Below, piece after piece: positions 8,723 through 15,482 of a stretch of DNA of 32,000 nt. The stretch spans positions 1 to 32,000 of the forward strand of contig NZ_LGHJ01000006.1 of assembly GCF_001306055.1 (NCBI RefSeq), in the 5' to 3' direction. The DNA is from Bellilinea caldifistulae. GTDB lineage: Bacteria > Chloroflexota > Anaerolineae > Anaerolineales > Anaerolineaceae. Below the pieces are notes generated by a model. That model was not told the DNA's origin and made no database searches. It saw only the letters and a list, made by a program, of their open reading frames with translations. Position numbers and translations under genes: made by a program. The stretch's first letter is position 1; each line of letters starts with the position of its first letter.

Positions 8723-10606
8723 ATGAAACGGCTGGCGGTGTTGGGGATGATTGTATTGCTTGCCGGTGGGCTGTTTACAGCCGCACTCCCTGCGCCTGCG
8801 CCGGTACTCGCCGAAGAAACGACACCCGAAGCGCCCAAACGCCTGACCACCCTCCAAATCAACTTTGAACGCCACGAGTGGTGGCTGGTGCGCTGGAAAA
8901 ATAACGAGATCACCTGCCGTTTTCTGGTGGAACACGAAGGCCTGCCGATTGCCGATGAGATTCGCGTGTGGTGTGGGACGACCCTCTACAACGAATGGCT
9001 GGCCACCAAACCCTGTGCGCTTACCTCACCGGATCAGTCCCTGCAATCCTGCCCCGGTTTGTACCTGTTTCACTTTACCAGTTATCCGGCCAGCAAAGAA
9101 GTCAATGTGGAACTACCCCTGCCGGCGGTGTGGGTCAGTGTGACCGGTTGTACCCCCCAGCCGCCCGGTAATCGTTGCGAAAGTCTGCCTCAATTGCTGC
9201 TGACCGGCGAAGAGCCGCTGCCTAATGAGACCATCATCAGCATTCAGGGAACGCTCAACGGCAATCCTTTTGTTTGCAATGGGGATGCCTGTGCCATTCC
9301 CTTGCAGCCAACCGGTCAGGGAGGGGTGACGGTCGAGTTTTGGGCCGACTCGAGCTTTGGCGATTCCAGCCCAAAATTCAGCGCCTTGGTGCGGGTCATT
9401 CCGCAGGGAGATTTTATGTCGCCGGAGGGAGTTTCCACGGACAAACCGCTCTACTACGTGGATGTGTTGAGCAGTCAGTGGCGCGGCGGTGCGCTGGCTT
9501 CCTGTTCCGATATCTGGGGATCGTTTCCGCCGATTGGCGGGCCGGCCCCGTGGCTGACCACGCCGCAAGACCCGCAGGAATTGTACTCGGCAGTCAGCCT
9601 GTATTATCTGGCGGGGATGCTGATTGCCAACGGCGAAGTGGACGCCAGCGAATGCCGCGATGGCGGACTGGCAACCCCGTTGACCGCCAGCGAATGCGGT
9701 GTGCGCGCAGCGTATGAGCAGGTGGTGGCCTGGCAAAACCGCTTCGATGAGGAAATCTGGAATGTGGCGCAGGATACGGGTGTGCCGGCTCAACTGCTGA
9801 AAAACATTTTCAGCCGCGAAAGCCAGTTCTGGCCGGGCATCTACCGCAATTACAAAGAAGCCGGTCTTGGACAGTTGACCGAAAAAGGCGCCGATACGGT
9901 CTTGTTGTGGAATCCGAGTTTCTTTGACCAGTTCTGTCCGCTGGTGCTGCACCAGAGTCGTTGTGATCTCGGTTTCGGTAATATCAAGGAAGATGAGCGG
10001 GCGCTGCTGCGGGGTGCCCTGGTGGGCAAGGTCAACGCTGCCTGTGCCGACTGCCCGGCGGGGATTGACCTTTCACAGGCGCATTTCAGCATCCGCGTGT
10101 TTGCTGAGGGGATGATCGGCAACTGCGAGCAGGTGGGGCGGGTTTTGAACAACCTGACCGGCAAGACGGCCGGTTCGGTGGCGACCTATGAAGACCTGTG
10201 GCGGTTTACGCTGGTCAATTACAACGCCGGGCCGGGCTGTCTGGCTACGGCGGTGCGCAAAGCGCTCAGTTTGGGTCAGCCGTTAACCTGGCAGAATGTT
10301 TCGGCTCAGTTGGAGCCAGCCTGTCAGGGCGCGATCAAGTACGTCAACGACATCAGCCAAAAGTTGAGCGGGGTTCAGCCTACGCCGACTTCGTGGGTGT
10401 ACCCCGGTCAGCCGCCGCCGCAGGCCACCGTAGTTACCCTGCCGCCGGGTGTCACCCCCGTGCTTCAGCCGACTCTGCCACCGGGGGCAACCCCCCAACC
10501 GGGTGCGACGCCTCAGCCCGGCTACCCGCCACCGCAAGCCACCCCGGTTGAAGGCTATCCCTATCCCGTCCAGCCCACCCCCACGTTTTACAACCCCTAC
10601 CCTTAA
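8723..10606 (+). CDS. secreted lytic transglycosylase (SLT-like) domain protein with Cys-rich N-terminal region and Pro-rich tail
   Basis: Signal peptide present. FSRESQFWP...AGLGQLTEKG and LVNYNAGPG resemble the SLT catalytic E-S, GLMQ and AYNAG motifs. 627 aa. Confidence 0.72.
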   Translation: MKRLAVLGMIVLLAGGLFTAALPAPAPVLAEETTPEAPKRLTTLQINFERHEWWLVRWKNNEITCRFLVEHEGLPIADEIRVWCGTTLYNEWLATKPCALTSPDQSLQSCPGLYLFHFTSYPASKEVNVELPLPAVWVSVTGCTPQPPGNRCESLPQLLLTGEEPLPNETIISIQGTLNGNPFVCNGDACAIPLQPTGQGGVTVEFWADSSFGDSSPKFSALVRVIPQGDFMSPEGVSTDKPLYYVDVLSSQWRGGALASCSDIWGSFPPIGGPAPWLTTPQDPQELYSAVSLYYLAGMLIANGEVDASECRDGGLATPLTASECGVRAAYEQVVAWQNRFDEEIWNVAQDTGVPAQLLKNIFSRESQFWPGIYRNYKEAGLGQLTEKGADTVLLWNPSFFDQFCPLVLHQSRCDLGFGNIKEDERALLRGALVGKVNAACADCPAGIDLSQAHFSIRVFAEGMIGNCEQVGRVLNNLTGKTAGSVATYEDLWRFTLVNYNAGPGCLATAVRKALSLGQPLTWQNVSAQLEPACQGAIKYVNDISQKLSGVQPTPTSWVYPGQPPPQATVVTLPPGVTPVLQPTLPPGATPQPGATPQPGYPPPQATPVEGYPYPVQPTPTFYNPYP

Positions 10607-11272: not shown

Positions 11273-12214
11273 TTACTCGCTAACGGGCTGAAAACGGCTG
11301 CCTAACTCCGCCTGAATTTCCTGCTGGTGGGCGAAAATAAAATCCCAAAAGACGGCTGCGGCGCTGCTGAGCGGATTGAGCCGGTGGCGAGTCATGTAAA
11401 TTTGCTGTTCAAGATGAACGCCGCGTATGGACACAGTGCGTACATCCGGCAGGATCAGGTTTTGCAGCACCATCTGAGAAACAAAACCCACCCCCACGCC
11501 ACGCTGAACGGCAACCGCAATCGCCTCTGAATTGCCCATGCGCAGCACCAGCGCTAATTCGTGGATGTTGATGCCGTGCCTCGCCAGCGTTTCTTTGACT
11601 ACGCGGAAAGTGCCGGCGCACTCCTCGCGCAGGATGAAGCGTTCGTTTTTAAGTTCCTCCACTTCGATTTCCCCGCGCCTCGCCCACGGGTGATTCGCCG
11701 GCACGATCAGGTGAATGGGGTCGGTTATGAAGGGGCGGAATTCGTAGTGGTGATCGAACTCGTCAATACTGCTGGAAAAGGCAAAATGGGCTTCCCCTTT
11801 CTCCAGCATCTCCAGCGCACCTATTCGACTCATCACCAGGCACTGAGCGCTGACCCGCGGATAATGGCGTAAAAAGTCACTCACCACCACCGGCAGGACG
11901 TACTTGCCCGGGGTGGTGCTGCAGGCAATCGTTAAAAAGCCGCTGATCTGCCCGCGGCTGGCATCCACCACCTCGCGCGCCCGCAGGTTGAGGGTGACCA
12001 GCTGGCGGGCAACCGGTAAGAAACTTTCACCCGTCTGGCTTAGCTGTAACCTTCGCCCGCTGCGCACGAATAAAGCCTCGCCCAATTGATTTTCTAACGC
12101 CTGAATGGTTTGGGTGACGGCGGGCTGGGAGAGATTCAGTTTTTTGGCTGCCTGAGAAAAGTTGAGCGTTTCGGCAGCCACGATAAAAACGCGCAACTGG
12201 TGGGGGTCAAACAT
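11273..12214 (-). CDS. LysR family transcriptional regulator
   Basis: N-terminal wHTH FSQAAKKLNLSQPAVTQTIQALENQLG plus a LysR substrate-binding domain. Divergent from the cytochrome/rhodanese genes. Confidence 0.92.
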   Translation of the reverse strand: MFDPHQLRVFIVAAETLNFSQAAKKLNLSQPAVTQTIQALENQLGEALFVRSGRRLQLSQTGESFLPVARQLVTLNLRAREVVDASRGQISGFLTIACSTTPGKYVLPVVVSDFLRHYPRVSAQCLVMSRIGALEMLEKGEAHFAFSSSIDEFDHHYEFRPFITDPIHLIVPANHPWARRGEIEVEELKNERFILREECAGTFRVVKETLARHGINIHELALVLRMGNSEAIAVAVQRGVGVGFVSQMVLQNLILPDVRTVSIRGVHLEQQIYMTRHRLNPLSSAAAVFWDFIFAHQQEIQAELGSRFQPVSE

Positions 12215-12292: not shown

Positions 12293-12356
12293 ACTGACAG
12301 ATTAAACAAACCTTAGAATTTATAAGGAAGTGTATTCCCCGTAAAAGGAGCAAATT

Positions 12357-12608
12357 ATGGGAAAATTACGCATCTGGCTTGGATTGCTGGCAGGGTTCTT
12401 GATTCTGCTGGCGGGCTGTGCGCGGGCTACTCAGCCGGCCCCAACCGCCACCAGTGAGGTCCCTGCCCGGCCGACCGCTCCTGCTGCAACCGCCACCTCC
12501 CAGCCGCAGGTCAATTACTGCGTCGAATGCCACACCGACAAAGACCGCCTGATTCAAACGGCTAAACCGGAGGAAGAGGTCATCGAAGAATCGGAAGGGG
12601 CTGGCTGA
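12357..12608 (+). CDS. N-terminal segment of a multihaem c-type cytochrome lipoprotein (signal peptide, lipobox, 1 CxxCH), ending at an in-frame TGA
   Basis: AAGGAG SD 7 nt upstream. Lipobox LLAGC and one haem motif CVECH. It is in the same frame as 12618-13721 and separated from it only by TGA plus 3 sense codons. Confidence 0.7.
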   Translation: MGKLRIWLGLLAGFLILLAGCARATQPAPTATSEVPARPTAPAATATSQPQVNYCVECHTDKDRLIQTAKPEEEVIEESEGAG

Positions 12609-12617
12609 GGGGGCGAA

Positions 12618-13721
12618 GTGGCTCCGTTGGAGCCTTGGGAGAAAGTTTTAGTTAGCGCCAGTTTTCTGGAAAGTACGCACGGACAGTTTACCTGCGTGCA
12701 GTGCCATGGCGGAACCCAATCACCCGACAAGGACACTGCCCATACTAATCTGATTGCTAACCCCTACACCGACAGTGTCGGCCGCTGCGACCGCTGCCAC
12801 GCCGAAATCATGGCCACCTTCCCGGATAGTCTGCATGCCTCACTGTCGGGCTACCCGGTTGCCATGCAATCGCGCAGCGTACCGGAAAACCACCCCGCCC
12901 TGCAGGAAGCCTACAACAATCACTGCTCGAAATGCCACAGTTCCTGCACCGATTGTCACATTACCCAACCGCAGCACCTCGGCGGCGGCTTTCTGGATGG
13001 TCATAATTTTGTCAAAACACCGCCGATGACGCGTACCTGTACGGCCTGCCACGGCACGCGGGTGGGAGATGAGTACCTCGGCAAGCACGAGGATATCCCT
13101 GGCGATGTCCACTTCCGGGTTGGGCGGATGAACTGCGTTGCCTGCCACAGCGGCGAGTCGCTCCACAACACCCCGGCGGATGCGCGCGGCAACCGCTACT
13201 GGGGCGAGCAGTCACCGGCCTGCACCACCTGCCACACCACGGTTGGGCAAAAAGACGACCCCATCTTGCAGCATACCATCCACGGGGAAAAATTATCCTG
13301 TCAGGTGTGTCATTCGGTCAGTTACACCTCCTGCGATGGCTGTCATGTGGCCATCAGTGATAAGACCGGCCAGCCGTTCTTCCGCACCGAAGCCACCTAC
13401 CTGACCTTCTTTATCGGTAAAAATCCCCTGGATAACCAAAACCGCCCCTACGAGTATGTGCCGCTGCGGCATGTGCCGGTTGCCCCGACCAGTTTTGAGT
13501 ACTACGGCGAAAATCTGCTGCCCAATTTTGATTTGCGTCCGACGTGGATGTACGCTACCCCCCATAACATCCAGCGCAAGACGCCTCAAAATCAGTCCTG
13601 CAACAGTTGTCATGGAAATGCGGCTATTTTCCTGACGGCTGATAAGGTCAAACCGGAGGAGTTGAACGCCAACCAGCGGGTGATTGTGGAAGAGATACCC
13701 GCTCCCATTCCGGGACAATAA
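12618..13721 (+). CDS. decahaem c-type cytochrome segment (10 CxxCH), no signal peptide of its own
   Basis: Haem motifs CVQCH, CDRCH, CSKCH, CTDCH, CTACH, CVACH, CTTCH, CQVCH, CDGCH, CNSCH. The nominal GTG start has no SD or export signal. It is most parsimoniously the continuation of 12357-12608 (454 residues in total). Confidence 0.8.
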   Translation: MAPLEPWEKVLVSASFLESTHGQFTCVQCHGGTQSPDKDTAHTNLIANPYTDSVGRCDRCHAEIMATFPDSLHASLSGYPVAMQSRSVPENHPALQEAYNNHCSKCHSSCTDCHITQPQHLGGGFLDGHNFVKTPPMTRTCTACHGTRVGDEYLGKHEDIPGDVHFRVGRMNCVACHSGESLHNTPADARGNRYWGEQSPACTTCHTTVGQKDDPILQHTIHGEKLSCQVCHSVSYTSCDGCHVAISDKTGQPFFRTEATYLTFFIGKNPLDNQNRPYEYVPLRHVPVAPTSFEYYGENLLPNFDLRPTWMYATPHNIQRKTPQNQSCNSCHGNAAIFLTADKVKPEELNANQRVIVEEIPAPIPGQ

Positions 13722-13748: not shown

Positions 13749-15482
13749 ATGAACCGAAAAATTGCTTTACCGCTAATTCTCATCATCATCCTGAGTATGC
13801 TGCTGGGCGCCTGTGCCCCGGCGGCTACCCCCACTGCCGCGCCGGTGGTTGAACCGACCACCCCACCGGTTGTCGAGCCCACCGCGGTACCCACCGCCGA
13901 ACCGCAGCCCGAACTGGATATTCTCGCGCTGTGGAGCGGTCTGGTAGCCGAACTGCCGGCTGAAAAGGGTTATGGCACCGTCAGCGCCACAAAACTGAAT
14001 GAGGATCTGGCTGATAATCCGCCCTTCCTTTTGGATGTGCGCGAAGCTGCCGAAGTAGAAAAGGACGGCTACATTGAAGGGGCTGTGAATATCCCAATTC
14101 GCCAGTTGTTGCAGAATCTGGATAAATTGCCGGCGATGGACAAGCCGATTGTGATCTACTGCGCTTCCGGCCATCGCGGCGGATACGCGCTGGCTGCCCT
14201 GAAACTGCTGGGCTATCAGAATGTGCGCAATCTGGGCGGCGGTTTGGGCGCCTGGAAGAAAGCCGAACTGCCGGTGGTTACCGGCTCACTGCCTGCCGCC
14301 CCGGCCGCCGGTAGCATGCCGCAAATCAAAGATCAGGCGCTTTTTGACCTGCTCAACGACTGGCTGAGCAACCTGCCGGAGGGCTTCCGCACCGTCAAAG
14401 CGGACAAACTGAACAGCGACCTGGCGGATGGTAAAAAGGTCTTTTTGCTGGATGTGCGCAACAAAGCCGAGGTCGAAAAGAACGGTTTTATTGGCGGCAG
14501 CACCCACATTCCCTTTGAGGAATTATTTGCCAAACTGGATCAACTACCCGCCAAAGATGCCGAGATTGTGATCTACTGTGCATCCGGCCACCGCGGGGCG
14601 ATTGCTCAAATGGGGCTTGCCCTGCTGGGTTATGAAAAAGTCGTTAACCTGGGGGGCGGCCTGAATGCCTGGAAGGCAGCCGGTTTTGCCGTGGAAGGCG
14701 TGGTGGACTGGAACGCCCTGTGGGGCGATTTCCTGACCAACTTACCCGGGGACTTTTACACCATCTCGGCTACCAAACTCAATGAACAGCTGGCTGATAA
14801 ACCGCCTTTCCTGCTGGATGTGCGTGAAACTGCCGAACTGGAAAAAGATGGTTATATCGAAGGGGCTGTTCACATTCCCGTCCGCCAGCTGCTGGATAAT
14901 CTGGACAAACTGCCGGCGCAGGATCAGCCAATTGTGATCTACTGCGCCTCCGGCCATCGCGGGGCGTTTGCGCTGGCGGCTTTGCGCTTCCTTGGTTATA
15001 CCAATGTAGTCAATCTGGGCGGTGGCCTGAACGCCTGGAAGAAAGCCGAATTACCGGTTGTGACCGGCTCGCTGCCGGCAGAGCCACCCGCCGCTACTGC
15101 TCCGGCGGTGGATGCCCTGCGGCTGGAGGGACTGAAAGCCTTCTTCGCCGGTCTGCCGGAAGGTTTTGGCACCATCAAAGCGGCCGACCTGAATGCCGCG
15201 CTTGGCGAAGCCAGCAAACCATTCGTTTTGGATGTCCGTACCGAAAAAGAATGGAACGAGGAAGGTTACATTGAAGGTTCAGTACTGATTCCGATCAACC
15301 AGTTGTGGGGACGGCTGGCGGAACTGCCCGGCAAGGATGCCCGTATCGTCGTGCTGTGCAAATCCGGTCATCGCGGTGCGCTGGCGATGATGGCGTTGCG
15401 CATGAATGGCTACACGGATGTGGTCAATCTGGGCGGGGGGTTGAACGCCTGGGCGGCCGCCGAACTGCCGCTGGTGAAGTAA
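13749..15482 (+). CDS. exported lipoprotein with four tandem rhodanese (sulfurtransferase) domains
   Basis: Lipobox LLGAC followed by a Pro/Thr/Val linker. Four rhodanese modules each retain an active-site loop: YCASGHRGG, YCASGHRGA, YCASGHRGA, LCKSGHRGA. GAGAGGAAAG SD upstream. Confidence 0.88.
   Translation: MNRKIALPLILIIILSMLLGACAPAATPTAAPVVEPTTPPVVEPTAVPTAEPQPELDILALWSGLVAELPAEKGYGTVSATKLNEDLADNPPFLLDVREAAEVEKDGYIEGAVNIPIRQLLQNLDKLPAMDKPIVIYCASGHRGGYALAALKLLGYQNVRNLGGGLGAWKKAELPVVTGSLPAAPAAGSMPQIKDQALFDLLNDWLSNLPEGFRTVKADKLNSDLADGKKVFLLDVRNKAEVEKNGFIGGSTHIPFEELFAKLDQLPAKDAEIVIYCASGHRGAIAQMGLALLGYEKVVNLGGGLNAWKAAGFAVEGVVDWNALWGDFLTNLPGDFYTISATKLNEQLADKPPFLLDVRETAELEKDGYIEGAVHIPVRQLLDNLDKLPAQDQPIVIYCASGHRGAFALAALRFLGYTNVVNLGGGLNAWKKAELPVVTGSLPAEPPAATAPAVDALRLEGLKAFFAGLPEGFGTIKAADLNAALGEASKPFVLDVRTEKEWNEEGYIEGSVLIPINQLWGRLAELPGKDARIVVLCKSGHRGALAMMALRMNGYTDVVNLGGGLNAWAAAELPLVK

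Follow-up and report, generated by a model that had tools for sequence, protein, structure and literature searches.

The analysed window, a stretch of 32,000 nucleotides (nt) of the Bellilinea caldifistulae contig NZ_LGHJ01000006.1 (positions 1 to 32,000), contains two consecutive open reading frames (ORFs) on the forward strand: one of 83 amino acids (12357..12608) with an ATG start, a lipobox (LLAG-C21) and a single haem-binding motif (CVECH, residues 55-59), and another (12618..13721) with a nominal GTG start, ten CxxCH motifs and a TAA stop (13719-13721). A Shine-Dalgarno (SD) sequence, AAGGAG (12345..12350, forward strand), can be seen directly in the sequence 6 nt before the ATG at 12357. 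A first-pass annotation of this DNA had proposed that both ORFs, being in the same frame and parted by the TGA at 12606-12608, make up one protein of 454 residues, the TGA representing either a selenocysteine (Sec) codon or the mark of a fresh pseudogene. The shared frame was confirmed on the sequence: read-through of the TGA would give one product of 454 residues with 11 haem motifs, whose junction peptide would be PEEEVIEESEGAG-U-GGEVAPLEPWEK, and tblastn matches of orthologues cover residues 1-454 of this product. In this work we analysed the whole gene (12357..13721, forward strand), which very probably is a single selenoprotein coding sequence (CDS) in one frame with one internal TGA, coding for a lipoprotein undecahaem cytochrome c.

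In the GenBank and RefSeq records of B. caldifistulae, also a type strain, the gene is shown as two CDSs, BECAL_00333 (WP_061913057.1, a "hypothetical protein" of 83 amino acids) and BECAL_00334 (WP_061913058.1, a "multiheme c-type cytochrome" of 367 amino acids), both of which are exact matches. The same two-CDS split occurs in the public record of the isolate Thermanaerothrix solaris 4228-RoL, and the same truncated CDS of 367 amino acids in that of the type strain of T. daxensis. Every public record looked up showed the gene in two pieces, a very short "hypothetical protein" and a "multihaem cytochrome" devoid of a signal. After the UGA comes an SD-like G-run, UGAGGGGGCGAA (GAGGGGG), located 4 nt upstream of the GUG and originating from invariant Gly-Gly codons; gene callers probably begin the ORF at the GTG because these codons provide such an SD-like sequence. 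It had been stated that the GTG was preceded by no SD and followed by no signal peptide: the latter was correct, while the former does not strictly hold in view of this G-run. Several orthologues carry the Joint Genome Institute (JGI) label "thiosulfate/3-mercaptopyruvate sulfurtransferase", which is probably a carry-over from rhodanese-fused members of the family (see below).

A protein search with the cytochrome yielded 1801 matches. The top ones (60-97% identity) were nearly all of about 365 amino acids and covered only the last 80% of the query, these truncated homologues beginning at "VAPLEPWEK", directly after the stop. DNA of the relatives was taken from GTDB species-representative genomes, at least 571 GTDB species encoding a relative, and the site was examined in the best 80. 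TGA was present at the identical codon in all 80 loci, each from a distinct GTDB species (53-92% identity) and all of them from Anaerolineae (Chloroflexota), within the motif E-[SN]-[EKS]-G-[VAT]-G-TGA-G-G-[EDS]-V-A-P-L-E-P-W-E-K. A lipoprotein N-terminus and the first haem motif were found in frame upstream of the TGA in every locus, which bears out the earlier argument that export of the ten-haem part depends on the signal encoded upstream. Metagenome contigs were collected by means of the hairpin alone (described below) and, among the matches listed, 119 out of 120 contained the in-frame TGA, the sole exception (L208) having one extra G in the G-run after the TGA; the upstream frame was open and contained a CxxCH motif in 115 of the 116 with enough sequence. 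In another locus (L057, ~10230-10275) an extra stop was observed in the N-terminal part; this stop and the extra G of L208 look like homopolymer/indel assembly errors and not biology. Finally, a profile search of 1.84 billion cluster representatives, 1042 of which make up the whole family, revealed many further diverged clusters that likewise begin directly after the TGA position, and in the six diverged Sec-type clusters for which DNA was retrieved, the site was TGA in all six, followed by 9 nt and the called start.

These results bear on the fresh pseudogene (or sequencing error) that had been considered for this locus, in which a sense codon would have mutated to TGA. Such an event would explain why one in-frame stop divides the gene although its second half cannot work alone, and also the two ORFs of the public annotation. 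However, purifying selection acts strongly on both halves, where every haem motif is invariant, and since the TGA is kept at the same codon across species, diverged clusters and metagenome contigs, this explanation is excluded for practical purposes and the probability that we leave to it is negligible. A genome-wide reassignment does not apply either: as had been noted, TGA is an ordinary stop elsewhere, ending 12 of the 26 other genes in the window, and therefore the standard code is used.

The sequence following the UGA can form a hairpin, GGCUCC-GUU-GGAGCC (12620..12634, forward strand), which begins 11 nt after the UGA and places its loop 17 nt from it. It is formed by an invariant block of 17 nt, GUGGCUCCGUUGGAGCC (12618-12634), unchanging even at synonymous sites. 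In a codon alignment of 79 orthologues with 145 conserved degenerate codon columns, codons 88-92 (GTG GCT CCG TTG GAG) showed zero synonymous entropy, and these codons together with the TGA were the only columns with that value; four-fold codons outside the hairpin had a mean of 1.68 bits and a minimum of 1.02. The stem reaches 8 base pairs (bp) in about half of the orthologues. The hairpin was the sole helix in the RNAalifold consensus, and alifold over positions -15 to +60 around the UGA gave this hairpin and no larger conserved structure. The diverged clusters contained different stems at the same spacing (GCCUCC-GUU-GGAGGC, GCCUCA-GGU-UGAGGC, GGCGCC-GUU-GGCGCU, and GGCUCA-GGU-UGAGCC). A count on ten representatives gave 100% standard pairs, with three of the six pairs altered on both sides, and a covariation score of 0.374 compared with 0.101 for shuffled alignments, a score that was reached by none of 500 shuffles and collapsed in slid registers. 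Conservation of the hairpin is far beyond chance. Synonymous variation was also lowered, remaining above zero, at codons GAA78, GAA80, GTT82, GGC83, GGC86, and GAT87 (12588-12617), for which no conserved pairing accounts; this may be a codon-context effect on UGA decoding.

The bacterial selenocysteine insertion sequence (bSECIS) model of Zhang and Gladyshev (summarised in PMC13188914) comprises a loop of 3-9 nt starting with G[G/U], a stem of 4-16 bp, a distance of 16-37 nt from the UGA, and a minimum free energy (MFE) of -7.5 or lower (PMC13188914). The hairpin agrees with all four constraints, with a GUU or GGU loop, a stem of 6-8 bp, a distance of 17 nt, and energies between -9.1 and -12.1 kcal/mol (-9.1 kcal/mol for that of the window), so that the G-first apical loop and SECIS-like geometry proposed in the first-pass annotation were upheld. 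As in bacterial SECIS elements of the fdhF type, it is a stem-loop within the coding sequence, just 3' of the UGA, with a 3-nt loop starting with G[U/G]; it differs from them in its minimal tri-loop and in having no evident bulged U as in Escherichia coli fdhF.

A conserved hairpin at this position might instead serve translational coupling of two cistrons, with termination at the UGA and re-initiation, via GAGGGGG, at the GUG 9 nt downstream. This architecture is the one predicted by all gene callers, and most members have an SD-like G-run and a codon of the GUG/AUG/UUG type after the UGA. Several facts speak against it. The downstream product would have no signal peptide, yet haem c attachment needs export; the G-run corresponds to the invariant Gly-Gly codons and is also found in forms with Cys at the site (CGG); the supposed start is not an in-frame start codon in several loci, such as L087 and L089, where it is a CTG/TTG Leu codon; relatives with Cys or another residue at the site are continuous ORFs; and the geometry of the hairpin is that of a SECIS. 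Re-initiation is thereby rendered extremely unlikely.

Distant homologues were informative about the residue inserted at the UGA. Cys was found at the aligned site in P0032, P0145, P0147, P0149, P0153, P0162, P0182, P0184, P0196, and others, the contexts in distant clusters being DGCGG, GEGCGG, GGGCGG, GxCGG, SCGG, GECCGG, and DGCA, in many independent clusters. At the level of aligned sequences, this recurrent Cys is the classical Sec/Cys signature. The close full-length relative P0032 has a TGT (Cys) codon at the site and an intact hairpin, which suggests a recent change from Sec to Cys. A further homologue (L082:537-1994) contains TTA (Leu), one base away from TGA; its hairpin is slightly eroded, no rhodanese gene follows it, and this copy may be decaying or re-purposed. 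In the non-Sec homologues L083 and L084, which have no Cys at the site, the hairpin is lost at both the nucleotide and the amino acid level. Some Cys-type relatives (P0147, P0153, and P0176) showed a vicinal Cys-Cys pair (GECCGG) at the Sec position. Such a pair is reminiscent of the redox tails (Cys-Sec/Cys-Cys) of thioredoxin reductases. Outside the core clade, Sec-type relatives (P0126, P0129, P0130, P0124, and P0135; L087, L089, and L090) have long C-terminal extensions with further haem motifs, and in them a C-terminal transmembrane anchor replaces the lipobox architecture.

The hairpin could, in principle, also drive a selenium-free programmed read-through, assisting a near-cognate or suppressor tRNA (Trp, Cys, Arg or Gly) at the UGA. 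This would fit with the Trp (TGG) codon at the site of one relative, P0140, and with the fact that Sec machinery is attributed to B. caldifistulae only through its relatives. Nevertheless, the residue that recurrently replaces the UGA in continuous homologues is Cys, which marks a Sec site; the G[U/G] apical loop and its spacing match SelB-dependent SECIS elements; and relatives within the Anaerolineales encode SelB. To our knowledge, there is no precedent for a conserved hairpin-driven UGA read-through in bacteria at this scale, which further reduces its plausibility. We consider this explanation very unlikely.

Some observations weigh against the Sec assignment. Neither the 32-kb window nor the 1.38 Mb of orthologous flanks yielded selA, selB, selC or selD, their presence in the genome being taken from the literature on relatives. 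Regarding the hairpin, Rfam gave no SECIS match, either for the whole window at the gathering threshold or for 12560-12700 at E-values up to 10, a chance miRNA match being the only one. Moreover, the folding energy of the single sequence is unremarkable (z = -0.09) and a competing fold, GGGGC/GCUCC, is the MFE structure of the single sequence; this fold was rejected for its lack of conservation among orthologues. Some relatives contain His (P0132), Tyr (P0173) or Trp (TGG, P0140) at the site, or no equivalent residue. With respect to the Sec machinery, ARAGORN detected no tRNA-Sec in the window or in the flanks of the homologous loci L001-L084, and Pfam analysis of all larger ORFs of the window detected no sel genes. 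The only "SelB" match, in L009, obtained by tblastn of E. coli SelA, SelB, and SelD against the 1.38 Mb of flanks, was rejected, as it corresponded to IF-2 beside NusA. SelB has been found in single-cell genomes of Anaerolineales and in Anaerolinea thermophila, which has SelB but no annotated Sec dehydrogenase (PMC4959059), and unusual forms of tRNA-Sec, including an 8/4 form, have been reported in Chloroflexi.

Considering both sides, the TGA at 12606..12608 (forward strand) is very probably a Sec codon with its own hairpin, specifying residue 84 within the motif E-S-[EK]-G-[VA]-G-U-G-G, and the two ORFs one protein of a conserved selenoprotein family. The Sec option of the first-pass annotation is thus supported by the alignment of orthologues (TGA in the 80 species, the six diverged clusters, and all but one of the contigs listed; Cys in distant homologues) and by the compensatory changes of the hairpin and its fit to the SECIS model, while its pseudogene option is refuted by the conservation of the TGA in species and metagenome contigs alike.

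The protein encoded by the complete gene starts with a lipoprotein signal peptide (12357..12419, forward strand) with the lipobox L-A-G-C21, a lipobox-like motif being present in 73 of the 79 orthologues and close variants in the other six. Haem motif 1 (CVECH, 12519..12533, forward strand; C55, C58, and H59) lies upstream of the Sec codon and ten further CxxCH motifs (residues 113, 144, 190, 197, 228, 260, 289, 315, 326, and 415; 12693..13613, forward strand) downstream, all being invariant in the 79 orthologues. Pfam matches were to Cytochrome_C7 and Cytochrom_c3_2, and the protein displays the features of a multihaem cytochrome c: 11 invariant CxxCH motifs, 12 invariant extra His, two Met, and an export signal. 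Orthologues of the core clade contain 11, 12 or 13 haems. Outside the CxxCH motifs, the only conserved Cys/Sec residues are Cys21, the lipid anchor, and Sec84, and therefore the mature protein would have a single free chalcogen residue. Located between haems 1 and 2, Sec84 is preceded by an acidic stretch and followed by Gly-Gly. No significant match to solved structures was obtained with the cytochrome sequence or the family profile.

When all ORFs within ~8 kb of the site were clustered in 81 loci, only three conserved families appeared: the cytochrome, a four-rhodanese lipoprotein of ~577 amino acids, and a LysR regulator. The rhodanese gene of the window (13749..15482, forward strand) is co-transcribed with the cytochrome gene, and its product matches Pfam Rhodanese (PF00581) in four stretches (E 2e-83), with three CASGHRG and one CKSGHRG active-site loops (C-x-S-G-H-R-G at residues 138, 277, 399, and 537); four active-site loops were found in 67 of 74 rhodanese homologues. 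In 77 of 80 loci, and in 68 of the 69 with enough flank (tblastn), this gene immediately follows that of the cytochrome on the same strand, the median gap being 36 nt. Cytochrome and rhodanese were also found naturally fused, both in a Sec-type relative (P0169) and in two non-Sec ones (P0173 and P0140). A link to the rhodanese partner, initially offered as speculation, was therefore substantiated by a conserved operon and by natural gene fusions. A scan for promoters and terminators of the operon gave nothing above shuffled expectation.

The third gene of the module codes for a LysR-family regulator (11273..12214, reverse strand), is divergent, and its product contains the Pfam domains HTH_1 and LysR_substrate. 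By far its best NCBIfam match was NF040786, "selenium metabolism-associated LysR" (216.9 bits, E 3e-64; curated cutoff 250), and it matched NF041036, "multiheme cytochrome-associated LysR", more weakly. A LysR homologue occurs within 4 kb in 66 of 80 loci, and divergently upstream in 48. In the diverged Sec-type locus L088:1-3258, the genes of a further multihaem cytochrome and of a ferredoxin-type 4Fe-4S protein come after the LysR gene, on the opposite strand, and their products could be electron-input partners absent from the Anaerolineae module.

Outside the module, the window codes for a secreted protein of 627 amino acids (8723-10606) with a weak match to SLT (lytic transglycosylase) and a C-terminal tail rich in Pro, a homologue of which was found upstream of the module in 8 of 80 loci and somewhere in the fetched flank in 13. 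A MiaB-like radical-SAM gene (611-1933) overlaps by 37 nt (1897-1933) an M23-like ORF called from a GTG at 1897, and the true start of this M23-like gene probably lies further downstream.

The closest known counterpart in concept is MccSep/ExtKL (GSU2937-2936) of Geobacter sulfurreducens, a multihaem cytochrome c selenoprotein acting as polysulfide reductase (PMC13510729; PDB 9WT8-9WTC). MccSep is periplasmic, contains five haems, and was demonstrated in 2026 to act as the polysulfide reductase in S0 respiration, with Sec325 working beside a His/Cys-ligated haem (PMC13510729); MccSep/ExtKL gene clusters include the rhodanese-like ExtH (PMC13510729, PMC5877670). Both systems share an extracytoplasmic multihaem cytochrome c with one Sec, an in-frame UGA because of which the gene was annotated in two parts, a SECIS-like hairpin shortly after it, a rhodanese-like lipoprotein nearby (ExtH in Geobacter), and the existence of Sec and Cys forms. 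However, the Anaerolineae cytochrome contains 11-13 CxxCH motifs instead of five; its Sec is at position 84 of 454, on the N-terminal side and in a G-U-G-G context, whereas that of MccSep is near the C-terminus, in a D-G-U-P context and on an Ig-like domain; it has no conserved haem-ligating Cys, unlike MccSep with its strictly conserved C239 adjacent to the Sec; and it is a lipoprotein and not a soluble periplasmic tetramer. The two also differ in distribution, MccSep being found in Desulfobacterota or Nitrospirota and the cytochrome described here in Chloroflexota (Anaerolineae), and in gene context, the Anaerolineae module being a compact one of three genes with no porin or bc-type partners. 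No similarity between both proteins was detected: the PDB entries 9WT8/9WT9, present in the library searched, were matched neither by the protein (E up to 10) nor by the profile (E up to 1), and no match to NF040886, the MccSep/ExtKL family, was obtained at E up to 10.

Among other cytochromes, the octahaem tetrathionate reductase family (TIGR04315) and the GSU2204 family (NF041027) share with the one studied here CxxCH motifs and the existence of Sec-containing members, and the cytochrome matched neither of these NCBIfam models at E up to 10. A 2026 review of the prokaryotic selenoproteome lists as cytochrome selenoproteins only ExtKL, the GSU2204 family, and the octahaem tetrathionate reductase family, and makes no mention of Chloroflexi. 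A search of the literature on selenoproteins, multihaem cytochromes or rhodaneses of Anaerolineae/Chloroflexota found nothing on this cytochrome family. From these comparisons of sequences and records, the selenoprotein family is apparently undescribed, resembling MccSep in concept and lacking detectable homology to it. As for the rhodanese, a precedent is the Sud-Psr system of Wolinella succinogenes, in which a rhodanese-type sulfur carrier feeds polysulfide reductase. In common with Sud-Psr and ExtH-ExtKL, an extracytoplasmic protein with the rhodanese fold and an active-site Cys would here be paired with a terminal reductase of sulfane sulfur; the differences are that this rhodanese has four tandem domains and is lipid-anchored, that the reductase would be a haem/Sec protein and not a molybdoenzyme, and that both are sometimes a single fused polypeptide (P0169, P0173).

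Based on the established Sec pathway, SelB carrying GTP and Sec-tRNA(Sec) would bind the G-first apical loop while the ribosome is on the UGA. The resulting pre-lipoprotein of 454 residues would be exported by the Sec (secretory) pathway and anchored through Cys21 to the cytoplasmic membrane, on its outer side, and its eleven c-type haems would be attached outside the cytoplasm, as expected from established knowledge of such proteins. Sec84 would then be placed on a loop, rich in glycine and probably mobile, that separates haem 1 from the ten-haem part. The cytochrome would act together with the co-transcribed four-rhodanese lipoprotein, both probably being controlled by the selenium-associated-type LysR. 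In the proposed mechanism, the rhodanese cysteines would take up sulfane sulfur (from polysulfide, S0 or thiosulfate), or possibly selenium, as persulfides; Sec84 would attack the persulfide sulfur to form an Se-S adduct, and electrons from the haem chain would cleave this adduct, releasing sulfide. The cytochrome would accordingly be a polysulfide/sulfane reductase that serves respiration or acts as an electron sink, in analogy to MccSep with ExtH of Geobacter though independent of them, a proposal to which we give somewhat less than an even chance. Alternatively, the cytochrome may operate in the oxidative direction.

A number of points count against this functional proposal. The function has been assigned by analogy only, no sequence similarity to MccSep having been found. 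No quinol dehydrogenase or other electron donor was found in the conserved module. An AlphaFold2 model of the Cys-type homologue P0032 (predicted local distance difference test, pLDDT, 78; predicted template modelling score, pTM, 0.72) gave a pLDDT below 50 for the Sec/Cys loop and is therefore uninformative on the Sec position, and Foldseek searches of PDB with this model gave nothing below E = 1. In addition, the Cys-type relative P0162 has no rhodanese nearby, and the partnership is therefore not universal outside the Sec clade.

The same selenoprotein could also use Sec84 as the distal axial ligand of a haem (a His/Sec haem) and not as a free nucleophile on a mobile loop. His/Cys haems, which occur in TsdA, SoxA, DsrJ, and MccSep (through C239), are the model for such ligation. 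The mature protein has no other free Cys for the ligand role that C239 plays in MccSep (PMC13510729), haem 1 has no conserved candidate for a distal ligand in its own N-terminal segment, and the His (P0132) or Tyr (P0173) found at the aligned site in relatives are both possible iron ligands. On the other hand, the 12 invariant His outside the motifs and the two Met would suffice to ligate all 11 haems in a bis-His or His/Met manner; a flexible, exposed loop is suggested by the Gly-rich flanks and by the low confidence of the model; and both the GECCGG vicinal pair of some Cys-type relatives, typical of redox-active dithiols and not of ligands, and the occurrence of Trp at the site speak against ligation. 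We regard a His/Sec haem as unlikely. An attempt to deduce it by counting axial ligands was dropped, the twelve spare His and two Met making the count uninformative.

Another role for the same selenoprotein would be selenium handling, the module being devoted to extracytoplasmic reduction of selenite or tellurite, with selenium passing via perselenides of the rhodanese. In favour of this, the best match of the LysR regulator is to the selenium metabolism-associated family, MccSep also reduces selenite and the ext cluster was first tied to selenite/tellurite reduction (PMC13510729, PMC5877670), and rhodanese is able to carry selenium (cited in PMC5877670). However, the LysR score is under the family cutoff, MccSep prefers polysulfide seven-fold, and a wire of 11-13 haems together with a four-domain rhodanese would seem oversized for the acquisition of a trace element. 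We consider this role rather improbable.

The characterisation of MccSep, the first Sec multihaem enzyme, dates only from 2026. Another family that has the same ingredients (Sec, a haem chain, and a rhodanese) and lacks detectable sequence similarity to it would show convergence on Se-S haem chemistry. More specifically, the Anaerolineae cytochrome might represent a second, evolutionarily independent haem-coupled selenium chemistry, with a lone selenol on a flexible Gly-rich arm of an 11-13 haem wire, no resolving or haem-ligating Cys, and a role as haem ligand or as a shuttle of sulfane sulfur from the rhodanese; we put this forward tentatively, as a rather doubtful possibility. If Sec84 ligated a haem directly, it would be the first natural His/Sec-ligated haem c. 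The existence of cultured carrier strains makes the claim amenable to direct testing. Anaerolineae, which are regarded as fermenters, rank among the most abundant bacteria of anaerobic digesters, sediments, and the subsurface. The pairing of a conserved, membrane-anchored 11-haem Sec protein with its own sulfur carrier suggests that an electron sink acting on polysulfide, S0 or selenium has been overlooked. If the independent selenium-haem chemistry were true, the ubiquitous "fermentative" Anaerolineae would have an unrecognised selenium-dependent extracytoplasmic sulfur/selenium respiration, which could be the reason why this class keeps the Sec machinery.

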